Shown: positions 16,440 through 18,827 of the stretch, piece by piece
Position numbering within the stretch: position 1 is the first letter of the stretch
Layout: each line of letters opens with the position of its first letter
IMG/VR virus record: IMGVR_UViG_3300045988_149498
Length of the DNA stretch: 64,000 nucleotides
Source of the DNA: a virus
Taxonomy: Duplodnaviria; Heunggongvirae; Uroviricota; Caudoviricetes
Reading direction: 5' to 3' (one strand)
Program-made: the position numbers and the translations under genes
The notes under the pieces: model-generated
What the model saw: the letters and a program-made list of their open reading frames with translations, nothing else
What the model was told of the DNA's origin: nothing
The model's database searches: none

Positions 16440-16520
16440 ATTAATCTGAGGCCATATCTATGCTTAGCATACGTAGATTAGCCTCTTACCGACCAAAAGG
16501 TCAAGGAGAAGCAGGCTATG
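16440..16520 (-). ncRNA. Sok-like antisense RNA (position inferred, not resolved)
   Basis: Inferred from hok/mok architecture only; promoter not confidently identified. Confidence 0.2.
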
Positions 16521-16666
16521 AAGCAGCAAAAAGCGATGTTAATCGCTCTGATCGTCATCTGTTTAACCGTCATTGTGACGGCACTGGTAACGAGGAAAGA
16601 CCTCTGCGAGGTACGAATCCGAACCGGCCAGACGGAGGTCACTGTCTTCACAGCCTACGAATCTGA
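16460..16666 (+). CDS. mok-like overlapping reading frame of the hok locus
   Basis: 68-codon ORF beginning upstream of, and overlapping, the hok frame, as in hok/mok loci. Confidence 0.35.
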   Translation: MLSIRRLASYRPKGQGEAGYEAAKSDVNRSDRHLFNRHCDGTGNEERPLRGTNPNRPDGGHCLHSLRI

Positions 16667-16673
16667 AAGGTAA
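16518..16673 (+). CDS. hok: Hok/Gef-family type I toxin, 51 aa
   Basis: MKQQKAMLIALIVICLTVIVTALVTRKDLCEVRIRTGQTEVTVFTAYESER aligns with Hok (LTRKSLCEIRYRDG...EVAAFMAYES); AAGGAG Shine-Dalgarno site; 3' hairpin GGCGGGGA-gtga-TCCCCGCC at 16681-16700. Confidence 0.8.
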   Translation: MKQQKAMLIALIVICLTVIVTALVTRKDLCEVRIRTGQTEVTVFTAYESER

Positions 16674-17027
16674 GAGACCTGGCGGGGAGTGATCCCCGCC
16701 ACTCTTCGTGTGTCTGGTAACCTCAATGCACCCTTTTCTCCCCAATAGTGTAAAACACAATGAAGTAGAAGGAGTTATTTCACATCATGCAAAGATTCAG
16801 ACCATATCTCCCAATAGCCTTCGCGACATGATGACTTTCAGAAATATCTAGCTGTTAACAAAATTCCATACTTGCTTTGCTAATACCACCTAGATTATAT
16901 ATGGAAAAATACACCTAAAACTTAAACAAATTATATCCACAACAAACATCCATCTATTAGGATTAAAATTAATTTAATAATAAATAATACAACACCGGTT
17001 CATTTTCTAACAAACCGGTGGGCACCA

Positions 17028-18020
17028 TTATTGGAATAACTTACTGATTACATTAAAAACATTAAGGGCGTTACTTGCCACACTAGACATCTTGGCTGAA
17101 TTTTTTTCGATTGAGTCAAGAACACTTTCGACTTCCGATAAAGTTCTTCTGCTATCTGCATCTTTTCCTGAGTCTATCGCATCTTTAATTGCAGATATAG
17201 CAGACTCTAAATTCTCCTTAAACTCACCTGTCGTCTCATCCTTCAAGAGAAGTTCTAACTCTTGTTTAAGTTTTTCCAATGATGCTCTTTTCTCATCAGT
17301 TTTACTAATCTTCCCTGAATAACTGACACAAACACATTCTCTTTTATTGCAGACAGGACAACCATTTAGATAATAACTTTCAAACGCCTCGCCAAGATCA
17401 TCATCTTTAAAAATAATCCCCCATAAAGAAAACAACCAAGCATATATATCAGCACACTCTTCATGAAGATTTTCTTTGTTGTAATTTTTATCTTCAATTG
17501 ATTTAGCATAAGCCTCTTGCAACTCACCCAACTCTTCGAATAACCTGGATGAATGATAAAACCCACCAAAAGTAGACCAAATGGTTCTATTCGACGGATA
17601 GATATCATTAATCATTCGTGGCGCATAAGGCGGAAATTGCATAGGTTTAATAGCGTTATATTTATTGAAAAGCTCATCTTTAATTCCTTTTGCGCTTCTT
17701 ATTTTCTCTGGCTTTCTGTGTGTTTGAGAACAGGAACAAGGCGCCCCTAAGCAATAAGGACAGCAACTAGGGAATTTTTTATAAAATGCTTCCTGTGGTT
17801 GTATTTCAAGTTTATCACAGATTGCAAAAAGCCAAGACAATGCTTCTATATAGGTATTTTTTAATAATTCTTTATCCTGATTACCATCACGAATAAACTC
17901 ACGTGTTAAATAAGCTGTTTTCCTTGTCAGATAAGAGTACATATACTCAAATGATTTTTCTTCATTTTTTTTGCTGTAAATACCTACAATAATATTGCTC
18001 ATATCATTGATACGTAACAT
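17028..18020 (-). CDS. Tandem MazG-like (all-alpha NTP pyrophosphohydrolase-like) protein with two CxxC-type zinc ribbons and acidic coiled-coil tail, ~330 aa
   Basis: Low-GC gene. Start refined to ATG preceded by AAGAGGAA. Motifs FEELGELQEAYA and HEECADIYAWL, plus a degenerate first copy; CPYCLGAPCSC and CPVCNKRECVC; terminator hairpin at ~17000-17030. Confidence 0.55.
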   Translation of the reverse strand: MLRINDMSNIIVGIYSKKNEEKSFEYMYSYLTRKTAYLTREFIRDGNQDKELLKNTYIEALSWLFAICDKLEIQPQEAFYKKFPSCCPYCLGAPCSCSQTHRKPEKIRSAKGIKDELFNKYNAIKPMQFPPYAPRMINDIYPSNRTIWSTFGGFYHSSRLFEELGELQEAYAKSIEDKNYNKENLHEECADIYAWLFSLWGIIFKDDDLGEAFESYYLNGCPVCNKRECVCVSYSGKISKTDEKRASLEKLKQELELLLKDETTGEFKENLESAISAIKDAIDSGKDADSRRTLSEVESVLDSIEKNSAKMSSVASNALNVFNVISKLFQ

Positions 18021-18317
18021 GACATTCCTCTTAAATAAGCCAATACTTCCTAGAACCATATATGCTTCGACAAAGATTAACGGACATCTTGCCTTCACAA
18101 ACTTTGACGCTACATAAATTTAACCATGTGCATACTAAATATTTAAGGTAGAAAAGTATAGGAGTATTTATTAATAGGTAACTGTTAGTTTACACTCACT
18201 TCATACCAGAGTATTTACAAGATGTTATTTTACTCTATTCGCTAGGCGGTGGAATGCGGTTGTATCAAGGGGAGGTAAACCTCCCCCGAAGAAGATTAAA
18301 AGTACAAGGGATAACAC

Positions 18318-18827
18318 TTAATCCCACTCAATCCAGTTGTAGACGATACGAAGTGACGGGCGCACAGCGGCAGTCACATCTTCGGTACTAAAGTCGATTG
18401 CATCACTGTAGATTTTGCAGTCCAACATTTCAATTGTTGTAGCAGCTTTTGTCACAGCGTTAACCCCGGAAGATTTGGATTCAGGGGTAGCAGCCATCGT
18501 GATATCAACATAGTCCTTCGCCGCAATGCGATCTTTAATGAACTGAAGAATATCGCCTTCGATAGTCTCCACGCACTGGACCTGGATTTCCCCAGAGTTT
18601 CGAATTGGACCGTGCTGATTGAACTTCACACCATTCGGACCATAGTCCTCCACATCCTCGCGGGTCATTTCAGGAATTTGCGACGTGCGAACCAGTACGC
18701 TGATATCTTCATGGCCTGCAAAAGTGAGCTGGAATTCAGAAGATACCAGTCGTTCGCCTTTGGCCGCGTTGGCAGTATAGCGGCCCTTAATAAATTTACG
18801 GTTTCCCTTAGTGTTATTGTGCCCCAT
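18318..18827 (-). CDS. Hypothetical tail/baseplate protein, 169 aa
   Basis: ORF with AAGGA Shine-Dalgarno site in the structural operon downstream of the sheath gene. Confidence 0.4.
   Translation of the reverse strand: MGHNNTKGNRKFIKGRYTANAAKGERLVSSEFQLTFAGHEDISVLVRTSQIPEMTREDVEDYGPNGVKFNQHGPIRNSGEIQVQCVETIEGDILQFIKDRIAAKDYVDITMAATPESKSSGVNAVTKAATTIEMLDCKIYSDAIDFSTEDVTAAVRPSLRIVYNWIEWD

Follow-up and report, generated by a model that had tools for sequence, protein, structure and literature searches.

The P1-like phage-plasmid represented in the window (the whole stretch of DNA analyzed, 64,000 nt) carries a gene for a tandem MazG-like protein, a rare accessory gene that was acquired horizontally. 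In our structure models the 233-residue core of this protein is made up of two homologous all-alpha halves folded as a single compact domain, which is most like a dimeric dUTPase protomer and a dimer of MazG-type NTP pyrophosphohydrolases. We propose it as a candidate lysogen-protecting pyrimidine (d)NTP pyrophosphatase, that is, a single-gene anti-phage protein, and we give this reading slightly less than an even chance of being correct.

The gene and its place in the plasmid

The minus strand contains a single long ORF at 17028..18098, the whole of which was taken as the gene in the first-pass annotation (GTG at 18098, 356 aa). We place the start codon instead at the ATG at 18020-18018, since the N-termini of 27 of 27 homologues align to that methionine. 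The resulting coding sequence (17028..18020, minus strand; 330 aa plus the stop codon) agrees with the 993-nt RefSeq CDS of WP_000944483.1, whose product already has the name "MazG-like family protein." Comparison with a 79%-identical homologue in a P2-like prophage indicated strong purifying selection, with a dN/dS of about 0.05 and saturated dS.

A Shine-Dalgarno sequence, AAGAGGA, can be read at 18026..18032 (minus strand) with a spacer of 5 nt to the ATG. On the same strand a terminator scan found an intrinsic-terminator-like hairpin at 16993..17020, with a 12-pair stem and a 4-nt loop followed by TTGTATTATT; the hairpin, CACCGGTTTGTTAGAAAATGAACCGGTG, and its T-rich tail run from 17020 to 16993, beginning 8 nt past the stop codon. 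The gene thus has its own Shine-Dalgarno site and terminator hairpin, as first described. A search for consensus sigma-70 promoters upstream of the gene gave none above the scan threshold. The most promising upstream site picked out by eye was TATACT at 18160-18155, which resembles a -10 box but has a poor -35. The gene and the late tail operon of the plasmid run in the same orientation, and because of this and the lack of a consensus promoter, expression in the lysogen and autonomous transcription are assumptions on our part.

Relative to hok-only P1-like genomes, the gene lies in a low-GC insert of about 1.54 kb (16747..18282), delimited by pairwise alignments with MH422554, a megablast gap and its GC content of 0.339. 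The insert contains the MazG-like gene (GC 0.341) and AT-rich flanks only; the GC content of the window is 0.474. On one side lie hok (16518-16673) and sok (an RNA matching Rfam RF01794, 16349-16523, 114 bits), and on the other the tail operon begins with bplB (18318-18827), which confirms the position previously given between the hok locus and the structural operon. The gene occurs neither in reference P1 nor in the hok-only P1 variants, and of the roughly 708 P1-like elements counted in complete E. coli genomes only 19 (about 2.7%) have it, all 19 copies being intact and at least 99.6% identical. These absences and the low occurrence support the horizontal acquisition that had been suggested from base composition. 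Variable presence in syntenic elements, deviant GC content and its own translation and termination signals are the features expected of prophage "moron" or lysogenic-conversion cargo.

The corresponding site in reference P1 is occupied by pmgF. This site, directly downstream of the tail operon, could suggest a structural or morphogenetic P1 gene with no enzymatic role, or a decaying passenger. Neither the protein nor the insert DNA has a match in reference P1, and there is no similarity to pmgF, rlfA or rlfB; comparison with the P1 reference thus revealed no backbone morphogenetic gene, and we rejected such a role given also the rarity of the gene among P1-like elements. The low dN/dS, the intact and nearly identical E. 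coli copies, and the conservation of catalytic and cysteine residues across a family of some 990 clusters argue against a passenger, and both versions of this explanation are effectively refuted. In other P1-like variants that we sampled this slot holds hok alone, rlfA/rlfB, or an unknown gene together with one for an Ail/Lom outer-membrane protein. We therefore rejected the slot as a dedicated defense hotspot, and with contents so varied its location alone tells little about function.

The neighboring hok/sok locus could also suggest that the protein modulates host physiology, hydrolyzing (p)ppGpp or another stress nucleotide to tune growth or persistence, perhaps together with hok/sok, as might be compared with the MazG proteins of E. 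coli and cyanophages. However, most sampled P1-like plasmids have hok/sok without the MazG-like gene, and the homologues on Providencia, Pantoea, P2-like and inovirus elements have no toxin-antitoxin neighbor. The structural similarity to dUTPases rather than to E. coli MazG, and a gene context in relatives that points to pyrimidine deoxynucleotide metabolism and not to the stringent response, also make this explanation very unlikely.

Architecture and fold of the protein

All of the motifs quoted in the first-pass annotation were found: CPYCLGAPCSC (residues 87-97), FEELGELQEAYA (161-172), HEECADIYAWL (186-196) and CPVCNKRECVC (221-231). The two halves show homology above the level of chance, both by BLASTP (E 8e-6) and when the family alignment was examined with hhalign (94.6% probability, E 6.8e-8), in keeping with the description of two copies of a MazG-like module. 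Module 1 (residues 1-84; 17769..18020, this and all following features being on the minus strand) is a degenerate MazG-like helical half, as judged from alignment, conservation in 147 distant representatives and structure models. It is missing the acidic metal motif, with T56...E59 at the equivalent positions of the hhalign alignment, and retains Y15, N19, W63 and K/R82. It is followed by the first Cys4 cluster (CPYCLGAPCSC; 17730..17762), which is present in 28 of 28 family members and about 129 of 130 distant representatives, and by a basic linker (residues 98-134; 17619..17729) with one helix and a net charge of +5 according to its composition and the models. Model confidence is low at linker residues 101-103.

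Module 2 (residues 135-220; 17361..17618) is the predicted catalytic half, with a profile match to 1vmg over positions 156-218 and partial matches to Pfam MazG and PHROG 2245. The MazG family motif is E-x2-E, then 12-28 residues, then E-x2-D. The first predicted metal-binding motif, FEELGELQEA (17511..17540; E162, E163, E166 and E169), is invariant in the family, and in distant representatives E162 is found in 127/139, E163 in 132/139 and E166 in 128/140. The second, EECADIYAW (17436..17462; E188-x-x-D191 and W195), was assigned from alignments together with the general spacing rule, the 21 residues from E166 falling inside the MazG range. The combination E163-x2-E166 / E188-x2-D191 is invariant in the family and 91-95% conserved across the 147 distant representatives, and the acidic motifs are retained in nearly all fusion proteins. 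In the window protein the alignment shows the acidic residues kept in module 2 only, so that the distinction between a canonical second and a degenerate first module holds. Because the Mg2+-binding residues are confined to the C-terminal half, we predict one active site per polypeptide.

The second Cys4 cluster (CPVCNKRECVC; 17328..17360) is present in 28/28 family members and 140-141/141 distant representatives, and all eight cysteines, like the acidic residues, are conserved across the 147 representatives. The two sites had been called zinc ribbons. A classical zinc ribbon has two CxxC knuckles on separate beta-hairpins, usually at least 10 residues apart, whereas each site here is a C-x2-C-x4-C-x-C arrangement inside 11 residues, with no beta-strands there in the models. 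Each is better described as a compact Cys4 cluster or knuckle, and the conserved cysteines make both putative metal sites.

The C-terminal helical tail (residues 232-330; 17031..17327) has four predicted helices and a conserved motif, SG-D-D-RR. The original wording, an acidic coiled coil, is not supported as it stands: residues 234-330 are only mildly acidic (11% Glu, 12% Lys, 15.5% Ser, net charge -3), and a coiled coil would have long, unbroken helices of heptad repeats pairing in an oligomer, whereas the AlphaFold model gives four helices of 18-23 residues separated by turns, with block-mean pLDDT values of 58-79. In many of the top-scoring representatives the profile is covered as far as position ~330, and the tail is missing from core-only relatives of about 230 aa. 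A search for homologues of the tail detected none, with matches only to generic helical-bundle and designed proteins.

The core-only AlphaFold model has a pLDDT of 90.3 and a pTM of 0.89. It shows the all-alpha helical-bundle fold of the NTP pyrophosphohydrolase superfamily (MazG/HisE/dimeric dUTPase/dCTPase), and module 2 has the metal motif of that superfamily. Single-sequence scans of the window protein against Pfam, NCBIfam and PADLOC gave only sub-threshold matches or noise; its score with Pfam MazG, 14.7 bits, is below the gathering cut-off of 22, and its PHROG 2245 match (E 3.5e-6) is the only suggestive one from the family scans. A Foldseek search of PDB with the full-length model returned nothing significant. 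The family profile matches the MazG structure 1vmg with an E value of 9.7e-5, and two relatives, P0158 (29.1 bits) and P0142 (27.1 bits), exceed the Pfam MazG cut-off, which places the window protein in the superfamily by transitivity. The profile match and the models thus bear out the MazG/HisE-like fold that had been suggested.

Structurally the nearest proteins are dimeric dUTPases (C. jejuni 1w2y, S. aureus phage 5myd and Leishmania 2yay), with 6-7% sequence identity to the window protein and no sequence similarity to the conserved motifs of the dimeric dUTPase family. We know of no dimeric dUTPase that has Cys4 clusters, is clearly duplicated within its own sequence or ends in a helical tail. 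Single-domain MazG-type enzymes (SSO3215 1vmg, YpjD 2gta, iMazG 2q5z, MazZ 7ody and DCTPP1/RS21-C6 2oie; Pfam PF03819) are homodimers or tetramers with at least two equivalent sites; in contrast, the window protein resembles a dimer fused in one chain, with one site degenerate and a Cys4 cluster in each half. E. coli MazG (3cra) is also a tandem-domain protein and is linked to mazEF, whereas the window protein has no mazEF neighbor, has Cys4 clusters and a tail, and is nearer to the dUTPases in fold.

Relatives and competing explanations

The family contains about 990 clusters at 50% identity. In the P2-like prophage the homologue is alone between gpS and gpV, and in Providencia it is at the edge of an HP1/P2-like prophage. 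A Pantoea lambdoid prophage has its copy in the early region, with a DNA methylase and the Q antiterminator close by, another relative adjoins a P2-like integrase, and in an 8-kb Vibrio filamentous phage (inovirus) the family member is the only cargo gene. As DNA, the P1 and P2 copies share only the coding sequence and the 12 nt before the ATG, a stretch that includes the Shine-Dalgarno site. A conserved mobile cassette around the gene was rejected, given the end of homology at that point. Many chromosomal copies are found outside prophages. Of the core-only relatives, one is inside a DHFR-dCTP deaminase-ThyA-Tmk-SHMT cluster and a second directly follows thymidylate kinase.

These thymidylate-pathway neighbors suggest dUTPase-type chemistry, and the protein could serve the phage itself, either as a dUTPase/dCTPase that sanitizes the nucleotide pool for P1 replication or in counter-defense, removing immune nucleotides or alarmones. 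The closest structures being dimeric dUTPases, one of them from a staphylococcal phage, would fit such a role, as would the early-region location of the lambdoid copy and the co-orientation of the P1 and P2 copies with late genes. A precedent for counter-defense is Atd1, a phage-encoded MazG-like pyrophosphatase that is reported to act for the phage against TIR-STING (PMC10419184). Both proteins are phage-encoded members of the MazG superfamily with a reported (Atd1) or proposed (window protein) part in phage-host conflict, a likeness that we drew by description only; they differ in that the family of the window protein is TIR-fused in bacteria and was matched in just one of 50,697 phage genome records, that of the temperate Vibrio inovirus. 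Pool-sanitizing enzymes and anti-defense genes are common in virulent phages. The low occurrence among P1-like elements and the absence from reference P1 imply that the gene is dispensable for P1 replication, the inovirus of which it is the sole cargo replicates with host enzymes, and the TIR and CHAT fusions and chromosomal copies outside prophages are better suited to the host side of the conflict. We consider a phage-serving role unlikely.

Relatives occur fused to TIR, CHAT, cytidine/dCMP deaminase, PD-T4-6-like Ser/Thr kinase, PNP and GGDEF domains, and neighbors of relatives include EcoRII-Vsr-Dcm restriction-modification genes, an AAA_15/21 ATPase, and a STAND NTPase with HD-CE. Several TIR-fused relatives are located among housekeeping genes, outside defense islands. 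A Pantoea/Pectobacterium subgroup has a conserved downstream gene for a 248-aa protein with two transmembrane segments (2-TM), which tblastn did not find in the window or in the P2-like, Providencia or distant loci; we therefore rejected it as a general partner.

The fusions raise a further alternative, in which the tandem MazG/Cys4 core is a sensor of Mg-NTP, with slow hydrolysis as a timer, that gates an output module, so that the nucleotide pool is not the target. The outputs in relatives would be the fused domains or the 2-TM protein, the latter as a membrane effector; in the P1 protein this part would fall to the helical tail, by way of oligomerization, membrane contact or protein binding. 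Consistent with this, the same conserved core is paired with many interchangeable effector or output domains, and no other Pfam domain able to act as sensor was detected in the CHAT and GGDEF fusions. One relative has a CAP12/Pycsar-type TIR, a domain normally found beside a nucleotide-sensing domain (its contig, at 2.2 kb, is too short for a cyclase search), the kinase fusion is similar to PD-T4-6 and mad6, and the TIR fusions nearest to the window protein keep the tail. Against it, nearly all members retain the complete catalytic set, as a true enzyme would, core-only forms are found in housekeeping nucleotide contexts, the P1 protein has no recognizable effector other than the hydrolase, and its tail has no detectable homologue and was modeled with low to moderate confidence. 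For the P1 protein we regard this alternative as improbable. Somewhat less doubtful is a broader conjecture for the family, that the fused MazG/dUTPase-like pseudo-dimer with its two Cys4 clusters is an unrecognized NTP-sensing switch of prokaryotic immunity. The trigger for interchangeable effectors would be a (d)NTP specific to the phage or to infection, for example a modified pyrimidine dNTP, or a pool imbalance, and the P1, P2, lambdoid and inovirus proteins would be minimal stand-alone forms excluding competitors.

A possible lysogen-protecting hydrolase

The evidence for a role in phage conflict is circumstantial; it favors lysogen defense over counter-defense because the gene is lone cargo on five temperate phage types, because relatives have TIR, CHAT, deaminase, kinase or PNP domains fused to them, and because the gene is nearly absent from the phage genomes searched. 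In the lysogen-protecting reading that we prefer, the enzyme would cut a nucleoside triphosphate at its alpha-beta phosphoanhydride bond to give NMP and PPi, with the degenerate N-terminal half contributing a second wall to the substrate pocket (Y15, N19, W63 and K82) and the two invariant Cys4 clusters binding a structural metal. The likely substrate would be a pyrimidine deoxynucleotide, whether dUTP, dCTP, dTTP or an analogue with a phage modification, given the thymidylate-gene neighbors, the deaminase fusions and the dUTPase-like fold. The lysogen would make the protein as a self-contained anti-phage (superinfection-exclusion) factor, and on infection by another phage the enzyme would strip a nucleotide required by the invader, either depleting (d)NTPs generally, in the manner of abortive infection, or selectively destroying a modified dNTP. 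Oligomerization or autoinhibition mediated by the helical tail may leave the enzyme harmless in uninfected cells. Since the core-only relatives look like housekeeping enzymes, enzymatic activity by itself would be no sign of immunity.

The mode proposed here, removal of (d)NTPs to halt phage replication, is also that of the defensive dCTP deaminase, dGTPase and PUA-calcineurin-CE-HAD systems. Their folds are unrelated to that of the window protein, some relatives of which are fused to cytidine/dCMP deaminase domains. MazG has been proposed as a defense domain, without validation (PMC13092281), and in some PUA-HAD systems MazG-like domains are reported to stand in for the dNTP-depleting calcineurin-CE effector (bioRxiv 10.64898/2026.01.15.699771). 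No model of PADLOC-DB v2.0.0 matches the core; the only match of the window protein, to LmuB (E 0.015), is on the tail and is noise, and relatives matched only through fused TIR, kinase or PNP domains. Our searches of the literature on MazG and defense, Tiamat, WP_000944483, P2/P4 hotspots and the expanded arsenal found no description of the protein, and the accessible literature gave no phenotype, expression or enzymology for any family member.

If the protein does protect the lysogen, it would be a very compact immune module of one gene (1 kb), built on an enzyme fold so far without defense validation, small enough for an 8-kb filamentous phage and spread over about 1000 protein clusters in many phyla. 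It would extend nucleotide-depletion defense to pyrophosphatases and put the recent prediction of MazG immunity to the test. With its series of fused domains (TIR, CHAT, deaminase, kinase, GGDEF and PNP), the family offers a route for asking if the core acts as an effector or senses nucleotides, and the core-only relatives in the thymidylate operons of reduced genomes may be an unrecognized class of housekeeping dUTPase. P1-like plasmids carry resistance genes through the Enterobacteriaceae, and this gene is a further item of variable cargo that could affect the phage resistance of their hosts.

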